In this document: piece by piece, positions 2,525 to 63,988 of the stretch | How positions within the stretch are numbered: position 1 is the stretch's first letter | How the letters are laid out: the number at the start of each line of letters is the position of its first letter | Source: a virus | Taxonomy: Duplodnaviria > Heunggongvirae > Uroviricota > Caudoviricetes | IMG/VR virus record: IMGVR_UViG_3300025066_000017 | Length of the DNA stretch: 64,000 bases | Direction: 5' to 3' (one strand) | The notes under the pieces: model-generated | The model's input: the letters and a program-made list of their open reading frames with translations, nothing else | What the model was told of the DNA's origin: nothing | Database searches by the model: none | Made by a program: the position numbers and the translations under genes

Positions 2525-2541
2525 CTTTTAACATCCTTTTT

Positions 2542-3687: not shown

Positions 3688-3689
3688 AA

Positions 3690-5577: not shown

Positions 5578-5583
5578 TTATAA

Positions 5584-5602: not shown

Positions 5603-5603
5603 T

Positions 5604-6550: not shown

Positions 6551-6558
6551 CTACTCAC

Positions 6559-7020: not shown

Positions 7021-7066
7021 ACTCCTTTTAACTTATCCAGATCAATAATTAATATCAAAAAAACAA

Positions 7067-7441: not shown

Positions 7442-7443
7442 CC

Positions 7444-7665: not shown

Positions 7666-7745
7666 AAACTCTTCACCGTCTTCGTTGATGCTCCTAAAGC
7701 CGTAACGAACCTTCTCTCTATCTCAACACCCATATCCCACCACCC

Positions 7746-8066
7746 CTATCCGTAACGTTGTTCATCTAAAAGATCTTCAAAACAGTCAACCAAACTATCT
7801 AATCCAGCAGTCCACGCTTCTTTTACTTTTCTATGCCCACCCGAACCAAACATCGCAGTCAGTCCCATACTCTCTCTCAAGGACCCAAATAACTCCTGCA
7901 ACGCAATCATCTTCTCATCTACTACACGATCCCACTCCTCCCCAAAATTCTCTCGAATCTCTCCCCACAACACACCCACATGAAAAATGAATGCACCATC
8001 CTTATCTGGCTCACCCAATAAAGATAAAATTTGTTCAAGACTATTTTCCAAACTCACCGTATCCAT
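7746..8066 (-). CDS. Hypothetical protein (first gene of the minus-strand accessory operon)
   Basis: 106-aa ORF. The palindromic motif (variant) lies upstream at 8125-8143. Confidence 0.4.
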   Translation of the reverse strand: MDTVSLENSLEQILSLLGEPDKDGAFIFHVGVLWGEIRENFGEEWDRVVDEKMIALQELFGSLRESMGLTAMFGSGGHRKVKEAWTAGLDSLVDCFEDLLDEQRYG

Positions 8067-9912
8067 ACAAATTCTCCTTTTGTCTTTTTCAAATCAGTAA
8101 AAACACAACTCTTTCATTAACTTCTAAATAAAAAAACTTTAGAGTCTAAAGATTCAACCCAAAAACCAACAAGAGCAGGAACACTCCTCCCAAAAAACAA
8201 TAATCCCCACCGATCTCTAAAAGATCACATCACCCCAAACACTAAAACATCTACCCTCAAACACCACTGCCACAAACAACTAAAGCTAAAATAACCACCC
8301 ACTAAAGCCCCGTTTTATCAAACACCCCTAAAGACCCATGGTTTTATTAACTTGACGCTTCTCATATCCCCAATCTAGAGTCGTCCTCATTGTTGTTATG
8401 TTTGGTAGATGCTTCCCAAAAAAAATCAGCACCCCTCGGATAGGGCGACCCCGGCTTAAACGAAAAAAGCCACCCTAGAGTATGGCAGCTTCTTTCTAGT
8501 TGCTTGTACAAAACCTAACCGAGTAAAGAAAGGAAGCACAAACTACCCGAACAAGATTAGAGTAAGGAGATCGACAAGAAATGTCAAATGTTTTCTTCAA
8601 CTCTGCAAACTCCCTTGCAGAGCCACTTCTCTCTTGCAATGAGAAAGAAATGATGAAGAATACAAATCTCTACAACACTTCTCGCAAAAATCCTCTCCCG
8701 GATGAGAAGGACCCTACCGTTCGATTTGGACCGAATGTATTTCATTGCGACTCTAACCTTGAACAACAATACCACCTAATCCCCACTACCCCCCACCAAT
8801 CATGCAATGACAACGACTCCACCCGCGTGGCCAAAATTGGAGTCAACTATCCAATTGCACATTTCTCTACGATTCTCCAAAAGCAACACTTCATTGGCGA
8901 AGCGCTGCGGAAAATTATACGGCAATTGCATAATGGGCAACTGAGAGGCCCACCCCTCCGATTCTGCAGTACCTCCTACAAAATGACCCTTGCCCCCCGA
9001 GGTCCAGAGACAACAAACAGTTATTCTCCAACAGGCAACACCACACCGTCACCCACATCACATAAACTTTTGTCCTCCAGAAGAAAACCAAACCACGGTG
9101 CGAACAAAAGTAACACCAATACCTCTTCTAGAGCGTTATGTGATCGCATGACACCGAACAACCACCCTGCTTGTGGACGAACGTATCTGCAGACGCCCTC
9201 TGGTAAAAAAAACTGCACACTTATGGGGAAACCACAACTCTGCAAAGAGTTGCTACATAGATAAGGGAACAAGTAACAAAGTGGCTCTTTTTTCGATTAC
9301 ACACGAGAATGATAACGAACTAGACACAAAACAAGTTCGCCCTCATACCTCACCATCCCTAAAAAGACACCCACTCTGATTGTCAGTCTTTGAGTTTCTT
9401 TGGTCATTTCTTCTCCGATAGGTCGTGAAACTCCTCCGGGAGTTACCCCCCAAATCCTATCCTACAAGCTCCTGACAACACCTCTTCAAAACTTATCGAA
9501 CTATCCCGATAGCACAGCACCCGATCTGTACCTCTTTTTTTGCACTGCACCACGAACAGATCAACACCCCCTTTGGCCTTGTATTGGTTGTACCAATCAA
9601 CCCATACGCCTAGCTGAAATCAAGAAGAGAAAACACAACACTAAAACTAGTTTCTCACATAAGTCAGAATCACCTTAAGTCATCCTTAACTTAAATTATC
9701 CCTGCCTTATTTCTTAACTAGTTCTAATCTCCCCTCCCATCAATTCTCTTCTTCTGATTAATTATTCTAATTTAAAATTTAGTGTTTTTTATCAGTTCTG
9801 CTCGGCCTCTCGCTTCGCTCTCTCTATTTCACGCCAAAAAGGGGGGAGTGCGTCTTCTGGATTCCTTGCATTTCGACCTTTTTAGTATTTTTAGACCGGG
9901 CTCAATCAGACC
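8067..9912. other. About 1.8 kb non-coding, strongly A+C-skewed (G-poor) tract between the divergent minus-strand (122-8066) and plus-strand (9913-15291) gene blocks
   Basis: No convincing ORF. Track ORFs here (8581-9264 and others) have non-protein-like N/S/T/P/H composition. The plus strand is nearly devoid of G over long stretches, for example 8160-8340. Contains degenerate half-sites of the palindrome (tctagagtc at about 8376; tctaaaagatc at about 8216) and the AT-rich leader of the + operon. Confidence 0.5.
8125..8143. promoter_or_regulatory. Palindrome variant AACTTTAGAGTCTAAAGAT, copy 2
   Basis: Upstream of the first minus-strand gene (7746-8066), at the edge of the non-coding tract. 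Confidence 0.65.
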
Positions 9913-10479
9913 ATGATGATAAATCGAAAACAAAGAGACGATGATACTATCACCCACATCCTGGCTATTAGTTTCAAGAGAGACAGTGAAACAGAAAGAA
10001 ACTTAAACATGATCCTCCAAGATGGTCCGTACAAAGACTGGGGGGATATGTTTATGAATTTGGCAGAGCTTGCCTTTTTCATTATCGACCGTAGAAAAAA
10101 TGGATATAAATTCTACCTAAGAGAGATTGGTCCCAATCAACCCTTTGTGGAGATACGCCAGCTTCCTGGTCCAGATCCCGATATAGAAAATCTCTTTAGA
10201 CAAGAAGAAGAGACTGATATAAAATTGCTCGACTTTGTTTATAAAGATGATGTGGGTAGAGAGAAATCTCTTTTATCGTTATCCAAGGATGATGAAGACA
10301 ATCCTGTGAATGAGCCTATGCCGGATGGACTATCTCAAGACATAGGTTCACCCGAGAATCTTCTTCTTCAGATCGATCCAGAAACGTTGCTAGGTATGAA
10401 GATATCGTTAGATCTTTCCTGGTATGAAAGAATCTGGTTCAGTTTTCGGCTCATGGTAAAAATAATCTTTAGACTCTAA
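9913..10479 (+). CDS. Hypothetical protein
   Basis: 188-aa ORF, first gene of the plus-strand block. Its stop codon lies inside a palindromic motif copy (10465-10483). Confidence 0.45.
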   Translation: MMINRKQRDDDTITHILAISFKRDSETERNLNMILQDGPYKDWGDMFMNLAELAFFIIDRRKNGYKFYLREIGPNQPFVEIRQLPGPDPDIENLFRQEEETDIKLLDFVYKDDVGREKSLLSLSKDDEDNPVNEPMPDGLSQDIGSPENLLLQIDPETLLGMKISLDLSWYERIWFSFRLMVKIIFRL

Positions 10480-41082: not shown

Positions 41083-41496
41083 TTAAATTGTGGACTCGTC
41101 AATGCAACGAGTTGCAACAAAGGCGACGTTCTCGGTAACAATACCTCGAGCCGCCATATCAAAGTTCTTTGTAGTAGCTTTCACACCAATGAAGTGATAA
41201 GCCGTCCTTCCTGTCGCAGATTCTTCGACGGAAGCGGTTAAAGCACCATTTGTCAGAATGTTTGTGTGAATTGGGAAGATGCCGAGGTTTTTCAGAGATT
41301 TCGTGAGGACACGAAACACATTGGCGTTGAGCGATGTTCGATATCCCACCTCGACATACTCGAGAACCTCAACAAAGTCTAGAACATCGACAGGCTCCAT
41401 GTCGACGCTTTCTTCACCAGAAACACCACCCGCATAGGCGACCTTCTGACCATTGATCTTGAAACGACTGCGAACGCCTGCAAATACTTCTGCCAT
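41083..41496 (-). CDS. Tail tube-like / tail-associated small beta protein
   Basis: 137-aa ORF with a strong Shine-Dalgarno sequence (aaggagaaaacaagATG). Lies in the sheath-tube-chaperone segment. Assignment is by size and position only. Confidence 0.4.
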   Translation of the reverse strand: MAEVFAGVRSRFKINGQKVAYAGGVSGEESVDMEPVDVLDFVEVLEYVEVGYRTSLNANVFRVLTKSLKNLGIFPIHTNILTNGALTASVEESATGRTAYHFIGVKATTKNFDMAARGIVTENVAFVATRCIDESTI

Positions 41497-41701: not shown

Positions 41702-41890
41702 CTACTGGGAGGGGTCGTTTGGGTCTGTTGTGCTTTCTTGCTTTTGGAGAAGTTCTTCTCTGTAGATACTGACATCCTTTGGGGCCTTAACCCCAAGCCT
41801 CACGGTCTTTCTCGTTATGGCTTTGACTTCGATGACAATATCTCCATTGATAATGATTCTTTCTCCAACCTTCCTTGTCAACGTGAGCAT
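41702..41890 (-). CDS. csrA: CsrA/RsmA family RNA-binding translational regulator
   Basis: MLTLTRKVGERIIINGDIVIEVKAITRKTVRLGVKAPKDVSIYREELLQKQ aligns along the full length with E. coli CsrA [52 protein letters not shown]. Size 62 aa; aaggaagg Shine-Dalgarno. Confidence 0.85.
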   Translation of the reverse strand: MLTLTRKVGERIIINGDIVIEVKAITRKTVRLGVKAPKDVSIYREELLQKQESTTDPNDPSQ

Positions 41891-48141: not shown

Positions 48142-49476
48142 CTAAATGCTCTTTATCTGTAGACTGTTCTGATTCTGTCTTTGTTTCATCATATTTGTAA
48201 ACTTATAAAGATCTTGAGAATCCCAAGCAAAATCCATAGAAAGCATATTTTCAACCATATACTGAAGAGCATATGTCAATGTCAGTGCTAAAAATGGAGC
48301 AGAATTATTTAAGAACGCACTCTCACTGCCAACATCTTCTAACTTGTCGGGTATGTAGGGATTATCAATAGATTTAAAAGTAAAAATGCCTTGATCCAAC
48401 ATATCCTCTCTACCCAAATCGGGCACTACCTCTTTCAATAAAAAACTGTGAAGATATTCAATCATTTTCATATTGAGTCTGTCGCCCATTGACTCATGGG
48501 CAATTCGATAAATACCCCCATTTAAACAATATTTGTAAAATGTTGGCCCCACGACTGTCATCCAAAACGATCCTGCCAACCATGGCTCATAACCCTCATC
48601 ACTCCCTGGCTTTCTACCCAGTATCTCCACTCCCGCAAACCATGCTGCACTGTAGCTGCTTGGGGGTGTCATTGTGCTAAATGGCATATAAGCCCAAGTG
48701 TACTGAGCTAAATAAGCGGATCCTAAAGATACCTCTGCTGGTGTGATTTGAAGTGATTGTATTTTCTCGCTTGCCCAAATTGAGATCTGCTCTCCTGCTA
48801 TCCCAAGCTCTTTTGTATCTCGTTCTAGTGTCTCCAAAAATGCCAATGTCAGTATTTTTAAAGCACTCTTATGATTCTTTTTTTCAATATTTCCCATTTT
48901 TGGGATATGCAATAATAAGTTTTCTTGAATTATTTGGCGGAACCTTTCACTACCCAAATCCTCTGAGAAAGAAGAAGTAATCATACTCGATATCAAAGAA
49001 GGGTTTTGCACTAATAGATCTACGGGTTTCTCATCTTCTCCTTCATCTAATATTGATGAAGCAAATGGTGTACCTCTTCCAATACTCTCGGCACTTAGTC
49101 GGCTCGATTCGTACTCTGAAAACAACCGAAGAGCATCGTCTTCATCATATTGACTACCTAACGCCGACAACTCAGACCCATCCATCCCTGTATCACCCAG
49201 AGCCATTTGGCTACTGTCATCGTCTTCTTGTGGCCTTATCTGTAATGCTCCCTCTTCTTGTCCACCTGATTCATTATCCACCGGCACCCATTCGCCCGGA
49301 GCCACTTTCTTGAAATCCCCATCAGTCCAATGATGGACTTCTCCTATTGCAGCCTCGTCTTTTCCAAACGATCCTCCTACCGGAGAGAAGGGATTGCCTT
49401 GTCCTGTTGTAGAACTACTTCCACTTTCCTGTGATGTTTGAATGGTCGAATTTTGTTCCGGTTGCGGTGGTAGCAT
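48142..49476 (-). CDS. Candidate major capsid protein with acidic N-terminal (delta/scaffold-like) domain
   Basis: 444 aa. The first ~140 aa are acidic and low-complexity (QEDDDSSQ, YDEDDALRLF), followed by a ~300-aa globular domain. Order portal-(small protein)-this gene resembles the HK97-type portal-protease-capsid arrangement. Fold not verifiable by eye. Confidence 0.35.
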   Translation of the reverse strand: MLPPQPEQNSTIQTSQESGSSSTTGQGNPFSPVGGSFGKDEAAIGEVHHWTDGDFKKVAPGEWVPVDNESGGQEEGALQIRPQEDDDSSQMALGDTGMDGSELSALGSQYDEDDALRLFSEYESSRLSAESIGRGTPFASSILDEGEDEKPVDLLVQNPSLISSMITSSFSEDLGSERFRQIIQENLLLHIPKMGNIEKKNHKSALKILTLAFLETLERDTKELGIAGEQISIWASEKIQSLQITPAEVSLGSAYLAQYTWAYMPFSTMTPPSSYSAAWFAGVEILGRKPGSDEGYEPWLAGSFWMTVVGPTFYKYCLNGGIYRIAHESMGDRLNMKMIEYLHSFLLKEVVPDLGREDMLDQGIFTFKSIDNPYIPDKLEDVGSESAFLNNSAPFLALTLTYALQYMVENMLSMDFAWDSQDLYKFTNMMKQRQNQNSLQIKSI

Positions 49477-49558
49477 GGATGTCTCACTATATTTTTTTCA
49501 AAACAATGCCGAGAAACAAACCCATAATACCTACTGTTTTTTTCAATTAGCAAGCAAT

Positions 49559-50014
49559 TTAGATTTCTTTCACACAAAGAGATTTGGACGCACCAGGAAA
49601 AGCAAGGGGAAGCTCAAACTTCTGTGTCGCAAAATATCTTTCCCAAAGAAACTGAAAAACTTTCTCTTCAAACGAAGAAAGTGTCACTAACTTTGGAAGA
49701 ACCCCCTCGGGGCTTATTTCTATAATCGGCTTATTGTCATGCCTGTTGATTATCAACTTCGTTGTCTTTAATTTCTCGTCGCGAAATAATGCTTGGATCA
49801 ATAAGTTTGCAAATGTCCCCGGATGTATATCCGTATTCATCTTCCAATACGGTGCCTTCTCTCGAGGGTGAATTCGAAAGTAAACTTCTCCCTTGAAAAC
49901 AAAGTCAACACACCCCACCTCCTCCATAACCTCCTCAGTGCTTTCTAAGGATGACCAAATATCCGAAGGTTTACTAGGTAATATATAGAGGTCCCGTGAC
50001 TTTCGTTTAATCAT
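49559..50014 (-). CDS. Hypothetical head-module protein (position of prohead protease/scaffold)
   Basis: Track ORF 49559-50149. Trimmed here to the internal Met MIKRKSRD, which lies just downstream of the portal stop. Confidence 0.35.
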   Translation of the reverse strand: MIKRKSRDLYILPSKPSDIWSSLESTEEVMEEVGCVDFVFKGEVYFRIHPREKAPYWKMNTDIHPGTFANLLIQALFRDEKLKTTKLIINRHDNKPIIEISPEGVLPKLVTLSSFEEKVFQFLWERYFATQKFELPLAFPGASKSLCVKEI

Positions 50015-50021
50015 ATTTTTT

Positions 50022-53000
50022 TCACATTTGATTTGGATCGTTTGGATCTGGCACACCACCCAAAGGAGGAATTTTGTTTCTATCCGGATTAGTCTGCATA
50101 TAAAGCGGAACTGGCTTGGCTTGACCATACCCTGGAATTTCATTCTCACCCGCAGTCATATACGCCATTTGCTCCTCACTGGGATCGGGCAACATCTGCC
50201 CCTCTTCTTCCAATAAGGTTCTCGCCTGAATCCAAGCAGGGTTCAAAATCACATTGCCATCCGGACGAGGAGGAAGACCCTCAGATGCACGACCTTCATT
50301 AAGTGTCATAAACGCGCTCATCTTCATATTAAGAAGCTCCACGCGCTCTCTCTCAGACAACTCATCCAAACCAACAAAATCGAAATACAACCTCGAATCC
50401 AATGGGTCCACTATGTACTTCGTGATTTGTTTCGATATAAAACGAAGCAGAGGCCGAAGCCCTTTGTCTCGAGAGTGCTTTATTTTCCACTCGTGCTTAC
50501 TCTCAAACACAGGTGCCCCACCACTCCCACCACCACTTGTTAAATCAAAACCAACCTCAGATGGATCAATCAAGTAAGACGCGCAAACCTGACGAATCAA
50601 ATACTCCAGCCAGGACTGGAATTCCATCTCCCGATTCGTATGCTGCAGGTCGATGTATTCCATCTGTTCCGCCTGCAATATAGGGGTTCTGAACGAGTTT
50701 GAAATGACAATCCCGTTCGCGGCAAAAGCGTGTAGATCTGTGTTGATAGAAACATCAAACATGTCAACGAAATCAGTTGTTATCTCAATTTCTGAGATAG
50801 GAGAGAAGTGATACTCAAGAAGCCAGTTGGGTGGAGTAATATTTACTTTCTCAAGAAATCGAAGAATGCGGGGGAGACTACACCCATCATCGCCTCGAAT
50901 TATCGCATTAAGGTCCAACCTTTCTCGCAGGGTTAGTAATTCGTAATTAGCCTCTTTGTTCTTTTTTTGTATTTTTCTGGCGAAGAAATAAGTTGTTCGC
51001 GGAGAAACCCGGCTATGTTTATTCGCCTCGTTGGGGTTTACTAAATCATCGGGCTGCTTGTGGTCTTGAAGGAATCCAATGTTTTCATAAAAGTAGTCTT
51101 TGTCTTTTATGCGAAGAAGCGACTCTTTCTCTTCGTAATACCGAAGAGGGCCATCTATGACAATTTTTTGTTTTCCTTCCGACAGATTTGTTCGGATTCC
51201 AACTGAACTAAGAAGCCACTTCACTTCCTGACGCAAACTATCATTTGTGATCGTGATTGCGACAAAACGTCCATCTCCTATGTGACCATCGGCAGAGAAG
51301 AGTCCTCGGAGAAAAGCAAATTTCAATTCATTGGGAAGGGTATACACAAACGGAGGGACGTTTTTCCCTTCAGAGGAAAACTGGAATCCGACTTCTTTTA
51401 ACCATCTGGCAAAATTGACGTTATTTAAAACAATTTGAAGTCGCTCAGACGCAACACTCTTGAAACCATATCGTTCTTTGATCTTTTCCTGTTCTTCGGG
51501 AGTAATGTGGATATCTTTCAAACGTGCTGCAGGATCAAAGTCTTTGAGTATGGAAAGATGTCGTTCTCGTATCTCTCTTTCTTTTTCATGGTGATAGAAA
51601 CAAAGCATTCCTTTATCACTAAAGTACCCATCACCAACAGCCCATCCTAGGACTTCCATGAGATCGGGTGTGACTTGTTTTCCGTTGCAGTGTGGAATAT
51701 TGTCCGGGTTTTGTGGGGATTGTTTGTTTACAAGAACATAATCCCCTTCTTGAAGATCTTCGAGTCGTTTCCAAACAGGAAGACCATCTCCACCACCTAA
51801 AACTCTAAACTTATGATCTGGTGATGATTTGATCTCCAATCCACACGCCAGTTTTAGACGACAAAGTTGTTTTTGCTCCTTTGTGCGATAGACCAGACCA
51901 GAAGCCCATTCTTTTCCTGTCCAGATTGTCGCTTCTTTTTCTTCCGTGCCTTCAATATAGTTTTCAAGAGAAACCATCCCTTCTTCTCTTGTCCAGATTG
52001 TCGTATCTCCATGAAGACAGTTTTCCACACCTGCGATCATGGCATACCAAGCTCTTCTAAAGCTTTCCATTTGGGCCTCGGAAATCTCGTCGCCCTTAAT
52101 GTTGATCAATCCCTTCGGCGCGGAGTTGGAGAGAATCACTCCACCACAGGACCACTGGTGCGAGGAATCCTTGATTCTCACATCGTACATTGGGCGCATC
52201 TCTTCCATGTCTTCGATAGAAGAAACACGAATCCATTGGTAGGAGAGTTCCTCCAGGAAATCCCAACAATCCAGTTTCTGACAGATTTCAATTATTTCAT
52301 CTCTAGAACATAACTCTTGGCTAGAATCATCCGCAAAATTGGCAAGTTTTAGCAAAAGTGTTCTTTCCTCGAAGAATAAAGAACTTATATCGCAATGCTC
52401 CTCTAAATGCTTTGCCATTCTTTTTAATAGAGGCTTGGGTATATTTTTGTTTCTTATGTAGATCAGAGATTCGGGCAATTCTATGGGGGCTACTTCTAAG
52501 CTACGAGCAACAAAATCACCTTCTTGTATCTCCGCGATTGGCCTCATGAGTATCTCGCCGCTATCCGTCAGTGCGAGGAACTTATGGTCGGGTGATGTGT
52601 GTATCTCAAATCCATCATCAAGTGTTGTTCGAATGGTTTCTTTTTGCCCCGTAGAGACAACATCAAAAGGAACCCACCTCGATCCATTCCAAACATTTCC
52701 GATGGGTGAAAATTCGACATCTGGATTTACTGGGAGATCTTTGATGTAGAAAACACCTTCGTCAGTAAAAACTCTTGTGTCCTCTCCCACACAACCCTGC
52801 TTAAAGAAAGCTCGATTATAAATCTCGCCCCAAAGCATCCCCAGGACAGCGTTGAGGGCTTTCTCTAGTTCACTGGTTCCGTATCCATTGTTCCAGATAT
52901 TGGTTTCAGGGTTTCTCACACAGAATGCAAGATCATTGTATGAAAAGATATTTTCGATGCGGCCATGAAGGAGTTGTATAGAAAAGACCTGATCAGATGT

Positions 53001-53888
53001 CATGCCTCCAAACTCTTCTCCATATACTTTTTTCCATCTCTCCTGGAAGCCATCTGTAAATTGTTCACGCTGCAGTCTGTTGGGACCGCTTCCTCGGAAA
53101 CCTTCAAATGTGGCTGCGAGTCTAATTGTTGCGGCATCTACTGCTCTGAACTCATAGGGGCGACCATATGTGTCTGGAGTGATTTCGGCGCATGCCTGAT
53201 CTAGCGTAAGTGAGTCTGTGGTGAATTTTCTAAGAAAAGTCTCAAAGTCATCTCGTGGGTAGGGAGAGTATGGGTTGGGTCCAAATCCACACGCCATAAT
53301 CATTTGCTCGAGTCTTCGAATCTGTTCCTTTTCTTCATCAGATGGTTGATGTCCATCGTCCTTGAATCGGATTTGAAATCCGACCTGCTTGTTTTCTCTA
53401 TAGGGTTGGGCGAAGGCTGCGACTTGGTTGACTCGTGTCGTGATAATGGAAGCGATGATAGGCACCTGCTTCACAATGGCGCGTAGGGCGTCAAAGGACA
53501 CCGAGAAGCGACGTTCTCTATATCCGGCAGAGTACATGAGTGTCAGAGGGTCGAAGAATCGCGTGCGTGGCCCTCTCGCAGGAACCATTCCACTGGGAAG
53601 AGACTTGTATGCGTCCGGGCCTTGTCTATACATACTGGGAGACATTTGGGTTGATGGAGTGATAATACTGCTTTGTTGTTCTGCGGCATTGTGAGTAGCC
53701 AGAACATTCCCTGTTCCTACAGGGACTCCATTATTTTTTACCTCACTCCCTTTTGCTCCATGCACTCCACCATGATAATGATCTTGAAAAAAAGCATTCG
53801 GTGAAGAAGATACAGTTTGCTCCTGCATCATCAACATCGAATCTTCTTGACCCATAGCTCTGTTTTTCAACCAACTATTTATACTCAT
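50022..53888 (-). CDS. Portal-like protein precursor containing two inteins (extein about 624 aa)
   Basis: Two Cys-initiated Hint segments. Each has a ...SPDHKF(L/R)... block and ends in (G)I(V/L)(I/L)SN followed by Ser. No Walker A motif in the exteins, which argues against terminase. Position upstream of the head genes. Confidence 0.55.
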   Translation of the reverse strand: MSINSWLKNRAMGQEDSMLMMQEQTVSSSPNAFFQDHYHGGVHGAKGSEVKNNGVPVGTGNVLATHNAAEQQSSIITPSTQMSPSMYRQGPDAYKSLPSGMVPARGPRTRFFDPLTLMYSAGYRERRFSVSFDALRAIVKQVPIIASIITTRVNQVAAFAQPYRENKQVGFQIRFKDDGHQPSDEEKEQIRRLEQMIMACGFGPNPYSPYPRDDFETFLRKFTTDSLTLDQACAEITPDTYGRPYEFRAVDAATIRLAATFEGFRGSGPNRLQREQFTDGFQERWKKVYGEEFGGMTSDQVFSIQLLHGRIENIFSYNDLAFCVRNPETNIWNNGYGTSELEKALNAVLGMLWGEIYNRAFFKQGCVGEDTRVFTDEGVFYIKDLPVNPDVEFSPIGNVWNGSRWVPFDVVSTGQKETIRTTLDDGFEIHTSPDHKFLALTDSGEILMRPIAEIQEGDFVARSLEVAPIELPESLIYIRNKNIPKPLLKRMAKHLEEHCDISSLFFEERTLLLKLANFADDSSQELCSRDEIIEICQKLDCWDFLEELSYQWIRVSSIEDMEEMRPMYDVRIKDSSHQWSCGGVILSNSAPKGLINIKGDEISEAQMESFRRAWYAMIAGVENCLHGDTTIWTREEGMVSLENYIEGTEEKEATIWTGKEWASGLVYRTKEQKQLCRLKLACGLEIKSSPDHKFRVLGGGDGLPVWKRLEDLQEGDYVLVNKQSPQNPDNIPHCNGKQVTPDLMEVLGWAVGDGYFSDKGMLCFYHHEKEREIRERHLSILKDFDPAARLKDIHITPEEQEKIKERYGFKSVASERLQIVLNNVNFARWLKEVGFQFSSEGKNVPPFVYTLPNELKFAFLRGLFSADGHIGDGRFVAITITNDSLRQEVKWLLSSVGIRTNLSEGKQKIVIDGPLRYYEEKESLLRIKDKDYFYENIGFLQDHKQPDDLVNPNEANKHSRVSPRTTYFFARKIQKKNKEANYELLTLRERLDLNAIIRGDDGCSLPRILRFLEKVNITPPNWLLEYHFSPISEIEITTDFVDMFDVSINTDLHAFAANGIVISNSFRTPILQAEQMEYIDLQHTNREMEFQSWLEYLIRQVCASYLIDPSEVGFDLTSGGGSGGAPVFESKHEWKIKHSRDKGLRPLLRFISKQITKYIVDPLDSRLYFDFVGLDELSERERVELLNMKMSAFMTLNEGRASEGLPPRPDGNVILNPAWIQARTLLEEEGQMLPDPSEEQMAYMTAGENEIPGYGQAKPVPLYMQTNPDRNKIPPLGGVPDPNDPNQM
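50697..52019 (-). mobile_element. Intein 2 with LAGLIDADG homing endonuclease (about 441 aa: CLHGDTTIW ... ANGIVISN | S)
   Basis: aa 624-1064 of the same ORF. Two LAGLIDADG-type motifs (LGWAVGDGYF, LRGLFSADGHIGDG) lie between the Hint halves. Confidence 0.55.
52125..52793 (-). mobile_element. Intein 1 (mini-intein, about 223 aa: CVGEDTRVF ... MYDVRIKDSSHQWSCGGVILSN | S)
   Basis: Coordinates computed from aa 366-588 of ORF 50022-53888. N-terminal splicing block C-x-G-x-T, TSPDHKFLAL block and C-terminal block ending SN+S. Confidence 0.5.
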
Positions 53889-53938
53889 TATATAAAAACT
53901 CGCCTATAGGTTATGTAGAAGATAAACCATCTTTGAAA

Positions 53939-53957
53939 ATCTTTAGACTCTAAAGAT
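53939..53957. promoter_or_regulatory. Palindrome copy 13
   Basis: About 50 nt upstream of the portal ATG (53888). Confidence 0.7.
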
Positions 53958-54019
53958 TTTGTACAAACTTTATTGTTTTTTTAGCAGTGTTGTAAAGAAT
54001 AAGTTTTGGGAAGAGAGAA

Positions 54020-55528
54020 TTATTGGGCAGGATAAATGGGAGGATTTGTTTCGGATGGAAGCGGTTGACTGTCATCGCTTGGGGTGGGAGAGGCGTTGGC
54101 AACACCCGTTGCTTCTCTTGAAAAATCAAACTCTCTTTCAACCGCGGCTTCTTGCGGCGAAAGCCTGCGTTCCCCTCCGTCTCCCTGTCCCATGCCCTTG
54201 TCCATTTTGAATACGAGAGGAGGAAATTCGTTCTCTCCGTCTTTTTCTTTCTCTTCTTGTAACTGCGACTTGTGTACGATTGTGAGGGGTTGCATGGACA
54301 AATCCTTGTCTTCTTCGGGTTCTTCTAAAAGTTCCTCTGCCGTGTTTGATTTTAGCAGATCCGAATCAGGAAATCCTTTTGCTTGCCAAAGCCTTTGGTT
54401 AATGACGTCCCAATTTATTATTTGAAAAAAATCCTCCACATATGCTTCTTTGTCGGGTCCATACTCAGCGAGGTAGGCGTGCTCCCATAGATCTATTCCT
54501 ATGAGAGGGATATCACCAGGAATACTTGGGTTGTCTGGACCCACATCATACATAATTTGTGGATTGCCATGATTTCTCAAGGTATACATCGCCAACCTAT
54601 CCGTGGCCCCACGGTATACCAACCACAACCATCCCGATCCCACTAAACGATTCGCTTCTCGTTTAGCACTAGCAATCATTTCCTCCATGCTACCAAATAA
54701 ATCTTTTATCGCATTTCTTAAAAGATCGGAGATAGATGCTCTAGATGTGTTTTTCTCCTCTTCTTCTTCAGTTCTCTCTTGAGGTTGTATAGAAGCCCAA
54801 AGGAATGAATGATTAATATCTCCACCCAAATAGTGAATGAGTTTATCTACCAATCCCGGTGGCATCTGAGAAAGAGATATCATAATAGACAGAGGAGAAA
54901 GCCCCTCCCATGCAGTTCCTTTGAGAGTTTCCTCAAACATCTCTACATATTTTCTATGAAGTACTTCATAGTGATGTCGTAGACTGCTCTCCTTAAACAC
55001 AGGACCAAATGCATCATAGGCATAAGGAAAGGCAGGCATAGAGATTTCAGAATTATCCGATGACTTCCGAAGCAATTGGAAAGATTTCCCCATCTCTTCT
55101 TCTTCCATCATTTGCTCTTGCATCATCTCTTCTTCAGGATCAACACCAATACCGTGCGATGCCGCCACATCGTCTTCTAGTTGAGCGAGCCTTTGCTGCT
55201 TTGCTCCCTCAATAATAGCCTCGTGGGCTTCGTATTCCTCGTCTTGTCTTTGCCGAAAAGTATAGGCAACTTCTGCTATGTCATCTTGCGGCCACCCATC
55301 CATCTTCATCTGACGCAAAATCTCTACATGCTCTGGCCAAAGGCGATGGAAAATTCCACCCAAAGCTTCAAGCTTCTCTGTTAGAGGATGTATTCGATAT
55401 CTTGGAGCATCCCAAAGGTGCGCCTCAATAGGATGAATCCCCCATCCTGGTGGTGGTTCTCCTCCGAGAGCATTCACTAAACCTTCTTGCTGCTCTTCGT
55501 TTCCACCATTGGGTTTCATTGGACACAT
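54020..55528 (-). CDS. Fe/Mn superoxide dismutase domain protein with N- and C-terminal extensions
   Basis: Complete SOD signature set: PAFPYAYDAFGP...HHYEVLHRKYV (N-terminal helix with His ligand), LGGDINHSFLW (GG.xNHS.FW, His ligand), GSGWLWLV, and IDLWEHAYL...INWDVIN (D-x-W-E-H ligands). Flanked by an ~150-aa N-terminal and ~80-aa acidic C-terminal extension. Confidence 0.8.
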   Translation of the reverse strand: MCPMKPNGGNEEQQEGLVNALGGEPPPGWGIHPIEAHLWDAPRYRIHPLTEKLEALGGIFHRLWPEHVEILRQMKMDGWPQDDIAEVAYTFRQRQDEEYEAHEAIIEGAKQQRLAQLEDDVAASHGIGVDPEEEMMQEQMMEEEEMGKSFQLLRKSSDNSEISMPAFPYAYDAFGPVFKESSLRHHYEVLHRKYVEMFEETLKGTAWEGLSPLSIMISLSQMPPGLVDKLIHYLGGDINHSFLWASIQPQERTEEEEEKNTSRASISDLLRNAIKDLFGSMEEMIASAKREANRLVGSGWLWLVYRGATDRLAMYTLRNHGNPQIMYDVGPDNPSIPGDIPLIGIDLWEHAYLAEYGPDKEAYVEDFFQIINWDVINQRLWQAKGFPDSDLLKSNTAEELLEEPEEDKDLSMQPLTIVHKSQLQEEKEKDGENEFPPLVFKMDKGMGQGDGGERRLSPQEAAVEREFDFSREATGVANASPTPSDDSQPLPSETNPPIYPAQ

Positions 55529-57847: not shown

Positions 57848-60800
57848 TTATTTATGTATCGGAACAAAACAAAGAGGACCAGTAGACTTTTCTATTGAAA
57901 CATTTTCTTGCTCAAAAGAAACACCAATGGATTTTAGAAATCCATCCATTCCACCATCTCCCCAACCGTTCGACTCTTCTCCGGAGTTTGAAATAAAATC
58001 TACCACTTCTTGTTCTGGTCCAGGATCTGATATCCCATGGTCATCAGGACTCCCCGGCTGATAATACTCGTCTCCTCGAGTAAACTGCCAAACACCCACA
58101 CCTTCTTCCGGCGTCTCTTGCTGCATAGGCGATGGTTGCGGAGGCTCTGGCTCTGCAGGGGCTGGTCCTTCTATAAAGACAGGCTGGCCTCCCATTTGTC
58201 GATAATGACCAATATCACCCTGCTCACCAACCTCTTGGCCTCCAGGCATAGGATCTCCCATAGCCTTCTCCATCGGTGTTATCACGAGAGGACCTTTAGC
58301 GCCCAATACAGAATCTGGATCTTTATCATCATTATCTATGGAAACACTTTTGTTAGAAAGATCATCTTCTTCAATGTTTTCTTCATTGCCAGATACATTC
58401 ACACCATACTCTGCCAAATCATCCACCATGTCCCCGCCTAGCCAGTTTGCAAAATCGGGCATTTCTGCTTGAGAGTCGGAAACTTCTGCTTGAGAGTCGG
58501 AAATTTCTTTGATTCTCTGAGTTTCTTGTTTGCGTGACTCCTCGAGACTGGCCGCTTGGTCTGGGGGCAACATATTGTGTTCAATTTGAGCATCCTGAAT
58601 CAGCTTGCCCAATTTTTGCCGTTTTTCTTCTGGATCGTCGATCTTTCCAAGAATTGTGTGCCATGCAAATGGCATAGTATCAGGCTCTCGAAGAAGATCT
58701 TCTGCCTTCCAACTTCCTTTTCCTAGATGTCTTAGTACTTTCTTTACACCATGCCTTGCCTTGGTTTGTGATAGTTCTTTTTGTGTTTCCTCTTCCTCCT
58801 TTTTCTCCCGTTCGACTCTTTCTCCATCTGCTATTGCAGTTTCTGTGTACTCTTCATCCCCAGTTCGATCAGTCAAGCCTAAGACTTTCTCAACTATGCC
58901 TTGTTTCTTTTTTTGTTTCTTTTCTTTTTCGACTCTTTCTCCATCTGCTATTGCAGTTTCTGTGTACTCTTCATCCCCAGTTCGATCAGTCAAGCCTAAG
59001 ACTCTCTCAACTATGCCTTGTTTCTTTTTTTGTTTCTTTTTTTGTTTCTTTTCTTTTTCGACTCTTTCTCCATCTGCTATTGCAGTTTCTGTGTACTCTT
59101 CATCCCCAGTTCGATCAGTCAAGCCTAAGGCTCTCTCACCCCAGCTCTGCTTCTTCTTCTTTTGAGTCGGAGCAACTTCTTCTTCTGCGGAAACATCTTC
59201 GTTTCTCATTCCTGTATCCTCTGCTTGTTCTTCGGGCAACTCTGGAAGATCTGGCAACTCTTCACCAGTAAATAATTCCGGGAAACGTTGTTGTAGTTCG
59301 CTCTGATAATGAGAAGCTGCCTTGTATTGTGGATCTATATCACGTCCAAACTGTTGTGCCTGTCGCACAAAATCTTGCGCAATTCCTTTTGGATGCCAAT
59401 TACCCATATCGTAATTATCATCCAAATATTCTTGCAGACGATGTCCCGAAGAACCTTCCTTATGCAAACCCTTTAGACGAGACTCTAGATTTCGAACCAT
59501 TGTTCCGTATGCAGATCTGTATGCGTCTTTTCCTAATGTCCTTTGTAATCTTTTACCATGATCCCTAAAAATCGATTTATTCTTATCTAAAAGATCAAAC
59601 GCCTCACTATGAGTTCCTTGAGCAGCCTCGAAGATTTCTGGATTCTCTCCCATTCCTGCCAATGCATTTTGTATTGGATGAGAATGGTCGTTTACAACGC
59701 GGAAAGATGGTGGCGTTTTTTCTTTGGGAGCCTCTCCCGCGTTCTCATCAAAAAGATTAGAATCCGGAGTCTGGTTAGAGTCGGGAGTCTGATTCTCTTG
59801 ATTCAGTTTTTCTCCTGTTCTTTGGCTTCGATAAGATCTGTTCCCAGTTATTAACTCAGATGCATCCGATATAAAGGCGGTTGCATCATCAAATAAACCA
59901 CCTTCTCCCGAAGCCTTTGCTTCTTTCATCCTTTTACGAGACTCTCTTCTTGAAGATTCTTTCAAGAGCTTTCGTATATTTGATGGGTAGTCACCGTGTA
60001 GAGCATCTTCACCAAATGCACTTATCAATGGACCAAAAAGCGACCTACCCAAACGCACAACTTCTTCCTCTTGATCTGGACCTATATCTTGTCCCAATAG
60101 ATGGGACAGGGCTTCTGCGTGCTCTTGGTTGTAAGCTTGATCAAAAGCTTTCATTGTAGAACCATGAAAAAGTCTATCAGACAATCTACGTAGCCATGGT
60201 GAGTCTTCTGATTGCTCTCTAAACTCGTCCATATACCCTTTTAGCTTTTGGCTATGTCGGAGGAACTTTCTGGCTCTATTAAGCGTTGCACTATTGTTTT
60301 TCTTTTTCTTTGCTTGTTTTGCCTGGGGTTGAATTTGAAGGGCACCCTTCGTTCCCGGAGCATTGCTTTCTGTGCTTTCTATGGGTTGGCTCGGAGAAGC
60401 ATCATCTTCTTGATAGTCTTCTTCTTGATAATCATCTTCTTGTTGATCATCTTCTTGATAATCATCTTCTTGTTGATCATCTTCTTGTTGATCATCTTCT
60501 TGATAATCTTCTTCTTGATAATCATCTTCTTGTTGATCATCTTCTTGATAATCATCTTCTTGTTGATCATCTTCTTGTTGATCATCTTCTTGATAATCTT
60601 CTTCTTGATAATCTTCTTCTTGATAATCTTCTGTATCTATATCCGAAGACTCTGCTCTAGGCTCACTCTTCGCAGAGTCAACTTGAACACCTTCATCAGT
60701 ATCCTCGCTCTGGGTTTCCTGCGTGTCTTTATCAAACTCCGCAGTCCCCTCTCTCTCCTCTCTCGAAGATAAGAACTCGTCATCTCTCTCTCGTCGAGAA

Positions 60801-63800
60801 CGACTTTGTTTACGATATTCACTCAAACGAGAGCGATTTTGCTCTAGATGGGCATCTAGAGCAAAATCGTCATCGCCCCCTACTCCAGGACCTTCTCCTA
60901 GTTGTTTGAATATTTCTTCTAGTTGAGAACGGTGCTCTTCATCACCAACGCCAGAGAGATGATCAAAGATTCGATCTTCTGTTTGTCTAAAGGCCGGATC
61001 ATGCTCGGCTCGTAAATTTTCTAATCGTGAGAGGTGATGCTTGAACTTTTCTCCTCTGCTCATGTATCGAGTTTCTTCAGGCTCGCTACCTAAGTCTGCA
61101 CTTCCCCCTAAACTCTCTCCAGTTAAGACAGAGAATATCGGGCTCTGCATATAGTTTTGTAGAATTTGACCGTGCTTTTCCAATTCCTCTCTAAGAGAAG
61201 CCGGTGCTGTGTTCGGAAGAAGCTGCTGCAATAGGTGTGTCGTATGTTCCTTTTCGCGAATATTCTTCACATGCTCGATAGCACTATCTACCAAGTGTTG
61301 TTCATTTGCCGCCGACAATTCTTGCATAACAGGATGATCGTCCGAGAGCCCTGGTGTGGACGCTTCATGCGAGAGCCCTGGTGTGGGCGCTTCATGTTTT
61401 TTAATATCCTCTATAGTTTGGGACAGATCCTTGAAAGCAAACTCTTGTTTTCCTGTGTCTTTGTTGTCCTCTTTTTGATCTAACTGGTCCTTAGCAGATG
61501 ATTCTTCACCTACTTCATTTTGTTGAGCATTATGTCCACGTTTATATGTTTCGGGATTTCTTCTTAATGTGCTTTTGAATTTACGAAGCTTTGTTCGAAG
61601 TTGCCCCATATCCGAATGATATTTCTCTAGTTCTTCGGGGCTAGGAGCTTCTTCTGATTCAGACCATTCGTTCGCACGATCCTCTAAATCAGAAAGACCA
61701 TCTCTTATATCTCTTGGAAAATGATCTGTTGCAATAGGACTTCCATCCGAATGACGTAACCCTTCCTTTAGAAACTTAAATTTCTCCAGGTTCATATCCC
61801 TTTGAATAGACCTATCTTCATCATTACCTATATGTCGTTCTGGTGAATCTATCTCAACATCTTCATATGACTTTGTTTCTGCTCCCTTTCTTCTAGGAAC
61901 TCTTGAAGCTTTTCCTCTAAGTTTAGATTCATTTCCATTATTGTCGCTTGCTTCATTGCCTATCAGTTTTTCGTCTTCAAAAACATCTTCTTCAATAGCA
62001 CCTTCGGAGGTATCTTCATCAAATCCTTCAGTATCCTCTTCTCCCGAATCTAGACCCAAGGCATCTTTTATAGCAAATTTGGTGTCTTGCCATTGCTTCC
62101 ATCTTGACTCCTTAGCCTCTGGGGAGTCTGTTGGCATGGATTGGACTTCTTCAAGTTGCTCCACTAGATCTTTATGCTCTGGGGCGTCTCCCAACGCCTC
62201 TGAGATGCTATTCGCCAGAGAAGTTATTGACTCGTGAGACTCGTCAGAGAGAACATCTTCAGTCTCTGGCTTCTCTGCGGGGAGAAGATTTTCCTTTATA
62301 TCCTCATCTGAAAGTTTCTCTGCAGATGCACCTGGATTGTAGAATCCTCTAAACTGTCTTGTTTCATTCTCGTTCCAATCTTTAGAGTCTAAAGATTCTT
62401 CACCATAAGAAGACGGTTGCTCTGCCGCTTGTAATATTTCTTTTATATCCTCCAAGTTTCTTGCTTCCATCGGATAAGAAGGTTCTTCTTCTTTCATCGA
62501 TGGAGACGATGCTTCCGTTTCTGGAGCAGATATTCTTTCTGTGGGGCTTGGAGTGTCTGTTGACGTCTCTTCGTCATCGCCCCAAGGATCCCCATCAAAA
62601 GGACTTTCGGATCCTGGACGACTAGAGACCTGTGTGTCTTCTTCGGGACGACTAGAGACCTGTGTGTCTTCTTCGGGACGTCTAGAGACCTGTGTGTCTT
62701 CTTCGGGACGTCTAGAGACCTGTGTATCTTCTTCTGGACGACTAGAGACCTGTGTGTCTTCTTCTGGACGACTAGAGACCTGTGTGTCTTCCTCTCTTGC
62801 TTTTATTTGAGGAGTTGGCGCGGTTCCTAGATTTGTTGGATTTGAAGATCCTGATAAACTATTCTGTGTTCTTATCATCAAGGCATTGTAATCTTTTTTT
62901 ATTTGATTAATTTCTTCTTGCGAAGCTCCTCTCTTCTCTGCTTCTTCTGTTTCTCTACGTAATGCTTGATGAAGGTCGCCCAAGATCTGAGTTTGATGAC
63001 TCACGTTATCCGAAGGAGCTTCATCTCGGTATAACCTATTATTCGATGGTTGCTCTCTTCTATCCTGTAATCTCTGTTTATTCCCATGCGCTTCTTTTAT
63101 TCTGCGCTTTAGCTCATTGCGCTGCTCAGTTGAAAAATCATCGGGATGCTCTAAATCTGTTTCTTCAAGAAGTCCATCTCTGAGATGTGACATCTCTTCA
63201 TGACTCATTTGTCCAGACTCGAGAAGAGATGCAATTTCTTTTGTTTCTGGAGCAGAAGCAAGAGCAGGATCCTTAGAATCTTCTCCTAATGGACTCTCCA
63301 TTACACCTGTATCCGCAAACGCAGAATTGTCCATCATATCCGTATCGGCAAACGCTCTAGGAGAAACGTCTTGTTCTTTTTGATCGACTAGGTTCCCTGG
63401 CATTCCATCATCAAAAAGCTTCGCATCATTCTCACTGAATCCTGCATTTTCTAAAACATCTGGATTTAGCTTCTTAAACTGATCCCATATTTTTTTATAT
63501 TCACCCATCTGTACCCGTTCAAATTGAGACAGACCTCCCTTCTCTTCCACAATCCTCTTGAATTCAGAAGCCACCCTTTCTACATTATCAAGGATTTCAC
63601 CTTGCTCCTCATCGAGACCCCCTTCACGAAGCCTCTCAAAATGAGAACTATCCATATCAAGAAAAGATTTCTCTTCTCCATCCAGCTTATCTACTGGATG
63701 GAAAAAATCATGCATTTGCGCTTCTTGTAAGTCTCTTTCGAGTTTAGCACCCGACGATCTTTTTGGTAGCGACCCATGATCAACAAAAGGCTGAAATTGT

Positions 63801-63988
63801 TGCGGCGTTGAGCTAGAGTCGAATGAAGGTTGTGCTTGATTTCCTCTTCCCACCGGAGCCAATTGACCAATCTGAGCATGCTCCCCGGTATTTGATAAAT
63901 CTTGTATACCAGAAACATCCGACATACGATCACTCAATCCAGGAATTTTACTTTGCGCGACGTTCCAAATTTGTTTCGCTTCATCCAA
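57848..63988 (-). CDS. Giant hyper-acidic repeat-containing protein (>2046 aa; N-terminus beyond window edge)
   Basis: Continuous ORF to the window end. Very high Glu/Asp/Gln content. Three internal tandem-repeat arrays encode EEDTQVSSRP x6, (E/D)DYQEED / DDQQEDD runs, and (LGLTDRTGDEEYTETAIADGERVEKEKKQKKKQ) x3. Confidence 0.55.
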   Translation of the reverse strand: MDEAKQIWNVAQSKIPGLSDRMSDVSGIQDLSNTGEHAQIGQLAPVGRGNQAQPSFDSSSTPQQFQPFVDHGSLPKRSSGAKLERDLQEAQMHDFFHPVDKLDGEEKSFLDMDSSHFERLREGGLDEEQGEILDNVERVASEFKRIVEEKGGLSQFERVQMGEYKKIWDQFKKLNPDVLENAGFSENDAKLFDDGMPGNLVDQKEQDVSPRAFADTDMMDNSAFADTGVMESPLGEDSKDPALASAPETKEIASLLESGQMSHEEMSHLRDGLLEETDLEHPDDFSTEQRNELKRRIKEAHGNKQRLQDRREQPSNNRLYRDEAPSDNVSHQTQILGDLHQALRRETEEAEKRGASQEEINQIKKDYNALMIRTQNSLSGSSNPTNLGTAPTPQIKAREEDTQVSSRPEEDTQVSSRPEEDTQVSRRPEEDTQVSRRPEEDTQVSSRPEEDTQVSSRPGSESPFDGDPWGDDEETSTDTPSPTERISAPETEASSPSMKEEEPSYPMEARNLEDIKEILQAAEQPSSYGEESLDSKDWNENETRQFRGFYNPGASAEKLSDEDIKENLLPAEKPETEDVLSDESHESITSLANSISEALGDAPEHKDLVEQLEEVQSMPTDSPEAKESRWKQWQDTKFAIKDALGLDSGEEDTEGFDEDTSEGAIEEDVFEDEKLIGNEASDNNGNESKLRGKASRVPRRKGAETKSYEDVEIDSPERHIGNDEDRSIQRDMNLEKFKFLKEGLRHSDGSPIATDHFPRDIRDGLSDLEDRANEWSESEEAPSPEELEKYHSDMGQLRTKLRKFKSTLRRNPETYKRGHNAQQNEVGEESSAKDQLDQKEDNKDTGKQEFAFKDLSQTIEDIKKHEAPTPGLSHEASTPGLSDDHPVMQELSAANEQHLVDSAIEHVKNIREKEHTTHLLQQLLPNTAPASLREELEKHGQILQNYMQSPIFSVLTGESLGGSADLGSEPEETRYMSRGEKFKHHLSRLENLRAEHDPAFRQTEDRIFDHLSGVGDEEHRSQLEEIFKQLGEGPGVGGDDDFALDAHLEQNRSRLSEYRKQSRSRRERDDEFLSSREEREGTAEFDKDTQETQSEDTDEGVQVDSAKSEPRAESSDIDTEDYQEEDYQEEDYQEDDQQEDDQQEDDYQEDDQQEDDYQEEDYQEDDQQEDDQQEDDYQEDDQQEDDYQEEDYQEDDASPSQPIESTESNAPGTKGALQIQPQAKQAKKKKNNSATLNRARKFLRHSQKLKGYMDEFREQSEDSPWLRRLSDRLFHGSTMKAFDQAYNQEHAEALSHLLGQDIGPDQEEEVVRLGRSLFGPLISAFGEDALHGDYPSNIRKLLKESSRRESRKRMKEAKASGEGGLFDDATAFISDASELITGNRSYRSQRTGEKLNQENQTPDSNQTPDSNLFDENAGEAPKEKTPPSFRVVNDHSHPIQNALAGMGENPEIFEAAQGTHSEAFDLLDKNKSIFRDHGKRLQRTLGKDAYRSAYGTMVRNLESRLKGLHKEGSSGHRLQEYLDDNYDMGNWHPKGIAQDFVRQAQQFGRDIDPQYKAASHYQSELQQRFPELFTGEELPDLPELPEEQAEDTGMRNEDVSAEEEVAPTQKKKKQSWGERALGLTDRTGDEEYTETAIADGERVEKEKKQKKKQKKKQGIVERVLGLTDRTGDEEYTETAIADGERVEKEKKQKKKQGIVEKVLGLTDRTGDEEYTETAIADGERVEREKKEEEETQKELSQTKARHGVKKVLRHLGKGSWKAEDLLREPDTMPFAWHTILGKIDDPEEKRQKLGKLIQDAQIEHNMLPPDQAASLEESRKQETQRIKEISDSQAEVSDSQAEMPDFANWLGGDMVDDLAEYGVNVSGNEENIEEDDLSNKSVSIDNDDKDPDSVLGAKGPLVITPMEKAMGDPMPGGQEVGEQGDIGHYRQMGGQPVFIEGPAPAEPEPPQPSPMQQETPEEGVGVWQFTRGDEYYQPGSPDDHGISDPGPEQEVVDFISNSGEESNGWGDGGMDGFLKSIGVSFEQENVSIEKSTGPLCFVPIHK
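58786..59165. repeat. 3 x ~117-129-nt tandem repeats within giant ORF
   Basis: Unit ttcgactctttctccatctgctattgcagtttctgtgtactcttcatccccagttcgatcagtcaagcctaag..., starting at about 58811, 58928 and 59057. Confidence 0.8.
60401..60650. repeat. Array of ~30-nt repeats (tcttcttgataatcatcttcttgttgatca), coding acidic DYQEED/DQQEDD runs
   Basis: Direct reading of 60400-60650. Confidence 0.75.
62378..62396. promoter_or_regulatory. Palindrome copy 16, located inside the giant acidic ORF
   Basis: The only copy embedded in a long reading frame (translates in frame as ...SLDSKDW...). The other 15 are intergenic or overlap a stop codon. Confidence 0.6.
62616..62795. repeat. 6 x 30-nt perfect/near-perfect tandem repeat (ggacg[a/t]ctagagacctgtgt[g/a]tcttcttc[g/t]), coding EEDTQVS(S/R)RP
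   Basis: Copies begin at 62616, 62646, 62676, 62706, 62736 and 62766. Confidence 0.85.

Follow-up and report, generated by a model that had tools for sequence, protein, structure and literature searches.

Two predicted class-1 inteins, one with a LAGLIDADG homing endonuclease, in the portal gene of an uncultured myovirus

Inteins have been reported from the portals of mycobacteriophage cluster C1 (Kelley et al. 2016, PMC5050341) and, among prophages, from portals like SPP1 gp6 (Novikova et al. 2016, PMC4760082); those in actinobacteriophage portals fall into five polyphyletic groups (bioRxiv 10.1101/2025.01.02.630785). Here we describe the gene for the portal, the ring through which DNA enters, of an uncultured tailed phage (Caudoviricetes; IMG/VR record IMGVR_UViG_3300025066_000017), which was analysed in a stretch of 64,000 nucleotides, referred to as the window. 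The gene encodes a precursor of ~146 kDa with two in-frame inteins, intein 1 (I1) and intein 2 (I2), inserted after extein residues 365 and 400 (sites 365 and 400). Our reading, to which we give a probability of roughly 0.85, is that this uncultured myovirus makes a portal precursor with two self-removing class-1 inteins and that I2 is homing-competent. I1 and I2 resemble the published portal inteins in being class-1 elements, often with LAGLIDADG endonucleases, that lie in frame in portal genes and whose penultimate His is poorly conserved. They differ in their host, which belongs here to the PF04860 SPO1/phage-812-like lineage of uncultured phages, and in number, with two per gene here and up to four in relatives. 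A keyword search of the literature, in which sources were seen in part and which is weak evidence for a negative, gave no description of inteins in SPO1/phage-812-type portals or of multi-intein portals.

The host protein and its two inteins

The host protein is a portal of the SPO1/phage-812 type. PHROG portal families match the open reading frame (ORF) with an E-value of 5e-42, and the concatenated extein obtained by removing I1 and I2 in silico (624 aa, 70.5 kDa) matches the solved portal of phage 812 (8q7d) at 1e-65. The score of Phage_portal (PF04860; cut-off 39.1) rose from 40.3 bits on the interrupted protein to 79.4 bits after in silico splicing, the match on the spliced extein being one stretch across both junctions. 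An AlphaFold model of the extein (pLDDT 70) was matched by Foldseek to portals throughout (phage 812, HK97, GTA, T5). In tblastn the extein matched 793 GenBank phage records, 76 of which cover at least 80% of the query. The best-listed matches are nearly all single pieces at 38-41% identity over residues ~49-577 and come from the Bacillus phages Shanette, SPO1 and CP-51 and from other Herelleviridae, most of them annotated as portal protein; this is the identity to the SPO1 group, over ~500 residues, in the comparison with phage 812 (8q7d, 8qem) and SPO1 portals. Unlike the window portal, those of SPO1 and Shanette lack inteins at both sites when aligned over their full length. In the three-way alignment I1 is a clean gap between FxQG and (G/S)xxKG, and I2 a clean gap between AGxx(G/N) and (S/A)WKTP. 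A natural I1-free allele, described below, reads FFKQG directly followed by SAPKG, exactly across the I1 junction. Nearby on the same strand are genes for a tail sheath, for a tail tube of the Phi812 type and for baseplate and tail-fibre proteins; the sheath and this type of tail tube are shared with Staphylococcus phage 812. The ORF is the sole portal found in the structural module; immediately downstream of it, neither a protease nor a major capsid protein was recognised. A megablast search of window positions 49000-55000 against GenBank phages gave no match. A terminase identity for the extein was considered and rejected because all of the evidence points to a portal. The initial annotation, made from the letters and ORF translations, had likewise preferred portal to terminase and had predicted an extein of about 624 aa; both proposals stand, and where it had looked to a missing contiguous homolog alignment as the sign against it, a single-piece alignment to intein-free SPO1 and Shanette portals spans both junctions.

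In the intact 1288-aa protein, Intein_splicing (72.8 bits, cut-off 35.8), LAGLIDADG_3 (38 bits, cut-off 22.5) and Phage_portal all score above their curated Pfam cut-offs, and the two intein segments alone still reach 43.6 and 37.3 bits for Intein_splicing. These matches confirm the two Hint segments that had been noted in this ORF, which lies on the minus strand. As also noted before, each segment starts with Cys, contains SPDHKF(L/R) and ends in SN before Ser; the exact terminal pattern that had been written for both fits I2 less well, its GIVISN end being one residue short. Metagenome gene callers start the protein at Met12 (window 53855), which gives 1277 aa. No further inteins were found by Pfam in ten large neighbouring ORFs.

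Both inteins have Cys1 (Cys366 and Cys624), the SPDH of block B, the Asp and His of block F, a terminal Asn and a +1 Ser. Cys1, the SPDH His, the block F Asp and His and the terminal Asn are invariant among the aligned portal inteins and site mates, as are the S, P and H of block B, and SPDH aligns to TSPWH of PI-PfuI and to TPIH of the PhoVMA intein. The C-terminal junctions read ILSN (I1) and VISN (I2), each followed by Ser, and the penultimate residue is thus Ser in both and not the typical class-1 His. A penultimate His (block G6) is typical of class-1 inteins but not obligatory. At site 365 all seven inteins, I1 included, end in Ser-Asn or Thr-Asn; those at site 400 are a mixture of Ser-Asn and His-Asn, about half of them, I2 among these, with penultimate Ser; and inteins at the other mapped sites end in His-Asn. 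Kelley et al. 2016 (PMC5050341) gives Gly, Lys or Ser at the penultimate position of mycobacteriophage inteins, describes a phage intein in which the penultimate residue modulates splicing and precursor accumulation, and cites work suggesting that the block F His takes over the role of the penultimate His. The block F His may substitute for it in I1 and I2 too. The Ser that the initial annotation had called atypical is therefore present in both inteins but has precedent in phage inteins.

The remaining class-1 features are all found in I1 and I2: a nucleophile at position 1, block B, terminal Asn with +1 Ser, and an in-frame position at a conserved site for which intein-free alleles exist. The Hint fold is indicated for I1 by its model and Foldseek matches and for both inteins by Pfam Intein_splicing. 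On these sequence features both are class-1 inteins, and splicing is predicted. Two other Hint assignments were rejected. Class-3 (WCT) inteins have no position-1 nucleophile and carry a Trp-Cys-Thr triplet in blocks B, F and G; both elements here start with Cys, and their blocks F/G, DSSHQWSCGGVILSN and NTDLHAFAANGIVISN, are without the WCT arrangement. Bacterial intein-like (BIL) domains are Hint domains that sit in variable parts of non-conserved proteins and mostly lack a C-terminal junction of Asn and nucleophile; I1 and I2 lie at near-invariant host positions, have Asn-Ser junctions and have intein-free alleles.

No LAGLIDADG motif is present in I1. Its AlphaFold model (pLDDT 84.6) has a Hint beta-fold formed by residues 1-98 and 185-222 around a helical insert (residues 108-180), and its top Foldseek matches are all inteins, namely Mxe GyrA (1am2), Ssp DnaB (1mi8) and Mtu RecA (2in8), with E-values of 3.5e-10 to 9e-7 and target-normalised TM scores of 0.73-0.80. 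I1 is alike to these in predicted fold and differs from the mini-inteins in retaining a four-helix insert of ~75 aa. The last helices of this insert (CSRDEIIEICQKLDCWDFLEELSYQW) are homologous to the segment before block F in full-length portal inteins, and full-length LAGLIDADG inteins occupy the same host site in three other portals (P0094, P0122, P0124; Hint parts 40-53% identical). I1 thus derives, by deletion of the endonuclease, from a site-specific lineage and is not a minimal intein; the earlier term mini-intein holds for the missing endonuclease, not for an element of 223 aa with such an insert. I1 had no match among Protein Data Bank sequences by phmmer, in the IMG/VR scan or in a word-indexed protein search, although exhaustive phmmer did find relatives, mostly further portals. 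An origin of the two inteins by recent intragenic duplication was rejected, as they are 33% identical and fall in separate site-specific clades.

In I2 two LAGLIDADG motifs had been noted before, which is upheld by Pfam LAGLIDADG_3 (here 41.5 bits) and by alignment: both motifs keep the catalytic acidic residue and align to those of PI-PfuI and PI-PkoII. I2 directly matches PI-PfuI, PI-PkoII and PI-SceI (E-values 9e-7 to 4e-4), and a portal-intein profile matches the PhoVMA, PI-PfuI, PI-PkoII, PI-SceI, DnaB and GyrA inteins (best E-value 1e-12). With PI-PfuI (1dq3), PI-PkoII (2cw7), PI-SceI (1dfa) and PhoVMA (7qss) it shares the Hint domain and the two-motif LAGLIDADG arrangement with an acidic residue per motif. 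It differs from these archaeal and yeast inteins in its low identity to them, in having penultimate Ser in place of His, and in its host, a phage structural protein. We infer that I2 is a class-1 intein with an intact double-motif LAGLIDADG homing endonuclease, the activity of which is predicted. Its sole match in the IMG/VR scan was the already known contig of the I1-free allele. The closest relatives of I1 and I2 in GenBank phages reach 24-36% identity and belong to RecA, RNR, helicase and tape-measure genes; neither intein has a relative in any GenBank phage portal. An unannotated stretch at ~1749-2945 of GenBank MT839817.1, a 4,012-bp 'Bacteriophage sp.' record from human faeces, is 36% identical to I1 aa 1-105 and 22% identical to I2 aa 49-441, which makes it a candidate further member of this intein group.

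Insertion sites and intein-bearing relatives

The intein flanks are among the most conserved positions of the portal in 62 intein-free homologs: F362, N400 and P405 are invariant, and Q364, G365, G370, N373, G376 and G397 are conserved in at least 90%. Ser is the commonest +1 residue even in these proteins (41/62 and 30/62 at the two sites), which makes the sites pre-adapted. The initial annotation had taken the 35-residue spacing of the inteins to mean a conserved host stretch. The conservation is borne out; the spacing itself is less remarkable, with relatives whose inteins are 15 residues apart (sites 385 and 400) and with sites 3-4 residues apart in different genes.

In the extein model, a long helix (340-364) leads into the loop that holds site 365/366. 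The middle extein contributes a short strand (370-374) and then a helix (381-395), after which comes site 400/401; the chain continues through a further strand and a further helix (426-440) into a disordered loop rich in Gly (449-479). The canonical portal topology, as in SPP1 and HK97-family portals, is wing, stem, clip, stem, tunnel loop, wing and crown. Set against this order, the modelled middle-extein helix would be the descending stem helix and site 400 would lie at the entry to the clip, and the C-extein would comprise the clip, the ascending stem helix, the Gly-rich loop as tunnel loop, and the crown.

Inteins were found in 13 of the 120 best extein homologs and were absent from the other 107. 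Across the whole sample of intein-bearing portals, large insertions map to at least ten positions in window-extein numbering (232, ~263, 338, 358, 362, 365, 385, 400, 419 and 437), a sample of sites that is biased by how the homologs were collected. Seven metagenomic portals (P0125, P0130, P0138, P0164, P0221, P0123, P0147) carry two to four inteins each, at sites 232, 338, 358, 362, 365, 385, 400 and 437. P0123, for example, has them at 365 and 437, P0147 at 400 and 437, and P0138 at 232, 385 and 400, while P0125 (2052 aa) and P0130 (2086 aa) have four each. In a neighbour-joining tree of the Hint parts, inteins group mainly by insertion site, with a few apparent site shifts; by this grouping I1 and I2 are predicted members of two different site-specific lineages. 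A broader proposal, which we hold tentatively and at somewhat under even odds, is that the portals of uncultured SPO1-like phages are an unreported intein super-hotspot with live turnover, including an endonuclease-less intein possibly trans-mobilised by its full-length site mates.

Haplotypes, proposed mechanism and rival explanations

The closest database protein to the extein (P0001) is the same portal without I1. Its contig (L003, from JGI 3300002518) is 98.7-98.8% identical to the window over ~22 kb, and the alignment breaks exactly between window positions 52795 and 52125, where only the 669 bp of I1 are missing. A metagenome scan gave one further close relative only (L006; Ga0080013_1000082, 129 kb, from another dataset), which is identical to L003 in this region. 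I1 is the largest indel in the alignment of the window with these contigs, and the portal gene otherwise differs by point substitutions only. The two-intein protein itself occurs in identical form on a 57.8-kb JGI contig, Ga0098052_1000061, which is possibly the window's own source. That I1 is an assembly artefact was rejected in view of the precise, in-frame 669-bp difference and of this identical 1277-aa protein, the possible common source applying here too.

The differences between the haplotypes are unevenly distributed (Table 1). The divergent part of the N-extein lies directly 5' of I1, the single change in the middle extein is in the +1 Ser codon of I1, and the divergence of the I2 alleles begins in the first codon of the intein. 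Summed over the exteins, 29 differences are synonymous and none is nonsynonymous. The I2 alleles diverge by 5.4% within exteins of at least 99.7% identity; the endonuclease-containing middle of I2 has a dN/dS (ratio of nonsynonymous to synonymous divergence, dS being the latter) of 0.09. The portal and I2, endonuclease included, appear to be under purifying selection, which argues that both are functional. Divergence bounded by the junctions is the pattern expected from homing with short or asymmetric co-conversion, and it is suggestive of an exchange of the site-365 flank and the I2 allele with diverged relatives in events that end at the intein junctions. As sequences, the paired haplotypes indicate recent gain, loss or exchange of inteins, with selection on I2. 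Between 40015 and 62725 the window is a mosaic relative to these two contigs, with patches dense in single-nucleotide polymorphisms (SNPs) away from the inteins, at 48400-49900 and 58300-59800.

We propose that each intein would remove itself by the canonical route of four steps: an N-S acyl shift at Cys1 would be followed by transesterification onto the +1 Ser, after which the terminal Asn would cyclise and an O-N shift would complete the reaction. With Ser and not His in the penultimate position, Asn cyclisation would probably draw on the invariant His of block F. Splicing would yield a portal subunit of ~70 kDa (624 or 613 aa, depending on the start), free I1 of 25.7 kDa and free I2 of 50.8 kDa. 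In co-infecting relatives the I2 endonuclease would cut intein-less alleles between AGVEN and S, and double-strand-break repair would then copy I2 into them. I1 would represent a separate lineage, specific for the site between FxQG and S, that has lost its LAGLIDADG domain and kept a helical remnant. Since the endonuclease domain is lost, I1 would persist by vertical descent; its spread could come about through ordinary recombination or with the help of full-length site mates that mobilise it in trans.

Several points weigh against this reading. SNP-dense patches occur elsewhere in the genomes too, and the coincidence of patches with inteins is therefore suggestive but no proof of homing. The I1 polymorphism cannot be autonomous homing: with no endonuclease in I1, it would have come about by ordinary recombination, by trans-mobilisation or by precise loss against an intein-free allele. 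The penultimate Ser removes the usual aid to Asn cyclisation, which could make splicing slow or conditional. Near both sites the extein model is of moderate confidence only (pLDDT 53-65), and the intein tree is without support values.

The first of these points can be taken further, to the view that the SNP clusters reflect ordinary mosaic recombination in place of homing or co-conversion and that I1 was precisely lost via an intein-free allele. The patches at 48.4-49.9 kb and 58.3-59.8 kb and the absence of an endonuclease from I1 fit it. Mosaicism of this kind would leave unexplained that the divergent tracts stop only a few nucleotides from the junctions (differences are seen in codons 365 and 366 on either side of I1 and in the opening codon of I2) and that 34 codons between the inteins are identical, where ~5-11 synonymous differences would be expected at dS 0.2-0.47. 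We regard it as unlikely, though far from negligible, and it bears only on the history of the population and not on what the elements are.

The inteins might instead act as conditional or slow-splicing regulators, with the Ser gating splicing (by redox state or temperature, for example) and thereby timing portal maturation and head assembly after translation, in place of being purely selfish elements. The retention of penultimate Ser or Thr in 7/7 site-365 inteins, and of Ser in about half of those at site 400, despite 40-50% divergence would mean that the residue is maintained and not decaying; the effect of the penultimate residue on precursor accumulation in the phage intein of Kelley et al. 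2016 (PMC5050341) points the same way, as does the location of both sites in the most conserved part of the portal. Such conservation is, however, expected of the insertion site of any homing element. The otherwise near-identical haplotype without I1, present in two datasets, implies that I1 is dispensable, and 107/120 top homologs have no intein. We regard a regulatory role as improbable. Still less probable, and in our view very much so, is that one or both elements are dead for splicing, as a decaying portal gene or a fusion with pseudo-intein domains. The lack of a penultimate His in either intein and the loss of the I1 endonuclease, with its remnant insert, could be taken as decay, but all other catalytic residues are intact and the reading frame is open across 3.9 kb. 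The 0 nonsynonymous against 29 synonymous extein differences and an I2 dN/dS of 0.08 also speak against decay, as does the two-intein protein found unchanged on Ga0098052_1000061 (again, possibly the source of the window). Moreover, an insertion of 664 residues in the stem and clip would be incompatible with a dodecameric portal, and no other portal was found in the structural module. Two self-removing class-1 inteins therefore remain the reading that we prefer.

Neighbouring genes and wider meaning

Directly upstream of the portal gene lies one whose product has a complete core of Fe/Mn superoxide dismutase (Pfam Sod_Fe_N and Sod_Fe_C, aa 163-379) between acidic extensions on either side; this protein is conserved in the I1-free contig L003. 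A superoxide dismutase is unusual in a phage structural module. Between the genes for the tail sheath and the Phi812-type tail tube lies one for a CsrA-like protein (MLTLTRKVGERIIINGDIVIEV...; the L003 ortholog matches PF02599). A GTG-start ORF in the mechanical ORF list overlaps the portal gene at its 3' end and has no family match; the metagenome gene calls at this place are shorter and do not overlap, with 151 aa in L003 and 122 aa in another contig (L005). A giant ORF without a Pfam match contains in-frame tandem repeats and is length-polymorphic relative to L003. At 1-10000 of the window the GC skew is -0.26 to -0.44, strongly negative compared with the rest, and it changes sign near 10 kb, at the switch in gene orientation.

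Table 1. Features of the portal locus and neighbouring genes in the window, with differences from the I1-free haplotype
Feature	Coordinates	Strand	Description	Nucleotide differences	dS
Portal precursor ORF	50022-53888	minus	1288 aa; stop codon 50022-50024
N-extein	52794-53888	minus	aa 1-365; C-terminal end YNRAFFKQG
N-extein codons 1-250				0	0
N-extein codons 251-365	~52794-53138	minus	synonymous-only tract directly 5' of I1	26, all synonymous	0.47
I1	52125-52793	minus	aa 366-588, 223 aa, 25.7 kDa; CVGEDT...SPDHKFL...GGVILSN then Ser
I1 block B	52575-52595		SPDH
I1 helical insert	52245-52472		~aa 473-548 of the ORF; ~75 aa, four helices
I1 block F/G	52125-52190		MYDVRIKDSSHQWSCGGVILSN
Middle extein	52020-52124	minus	aa 589-623, 35 residues; SAPKGLINIKGDEISEAQMESFRRAWYAMIAGVEN	1, in the +1 Ser codon of I1	0.05
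I2	50697-52019	minus	aa 624-1064, 441 aa, 50.8 kDa; CLHGDT...SPDHKFR...LGWAVGDGYF...LRGLFSADGHIGDG...NGIVISN then Ser	71 (5.4%)	0.21 (dN/dS 0.083)
I2 block B	51804-51824		SPDH
I2 LAGLIDADG-1	51621-51650		LGWAVGDGYF
I2 LAGLIDADG-2	51279-51311		LRGLFSADGHI
I2 block F/G	50697-50762		MFDVSINTDLHAFAANGIVISN
C-extein	50025-50696	minus	aa 1065-1288; begins SFRTPILQ	2	0.014
Superoxide dismutase gene	54020-55528	minus	502 aa
Overlapping GTG-start ORF	49559-50149	minus	196 aa
CsrA-like gene	41702-41890	minus	62 aa
Tail tube gene	41083-41496		Phi812-type
Giant ORF	57848-63988	minus	at least 2046 aa
Repeat in giant ORF	58811-59138		129 nt x2.7
Repeat in giant ORF	60401-60632		15/45 nt
Repeat in giant ORF	62616-62791		30 nt x5.9

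Taken alone, this locus is a textbook example of inteins lying in frame within an essential gene of a phage, and current understanding is not overturned by it. It extends portal inteins to the SPO1/phage-812-type portal lineage. Two natural, compact class-1 inteins with Ser-Asn before Ser, together with their His-Asn site mates, offer a comparison set for how Asn cyclises when the penultimate His is missing. In the many-site hotspot and the paired haplotypes there is a natural system for measuring intein gain, loss and co-conversion in phage populations, in which trans-mobilisation of endonuclease-less inteins can be tested. If the super-hotspot proposal is true, these haplotypes would capture intein turnover in a natural phage population.

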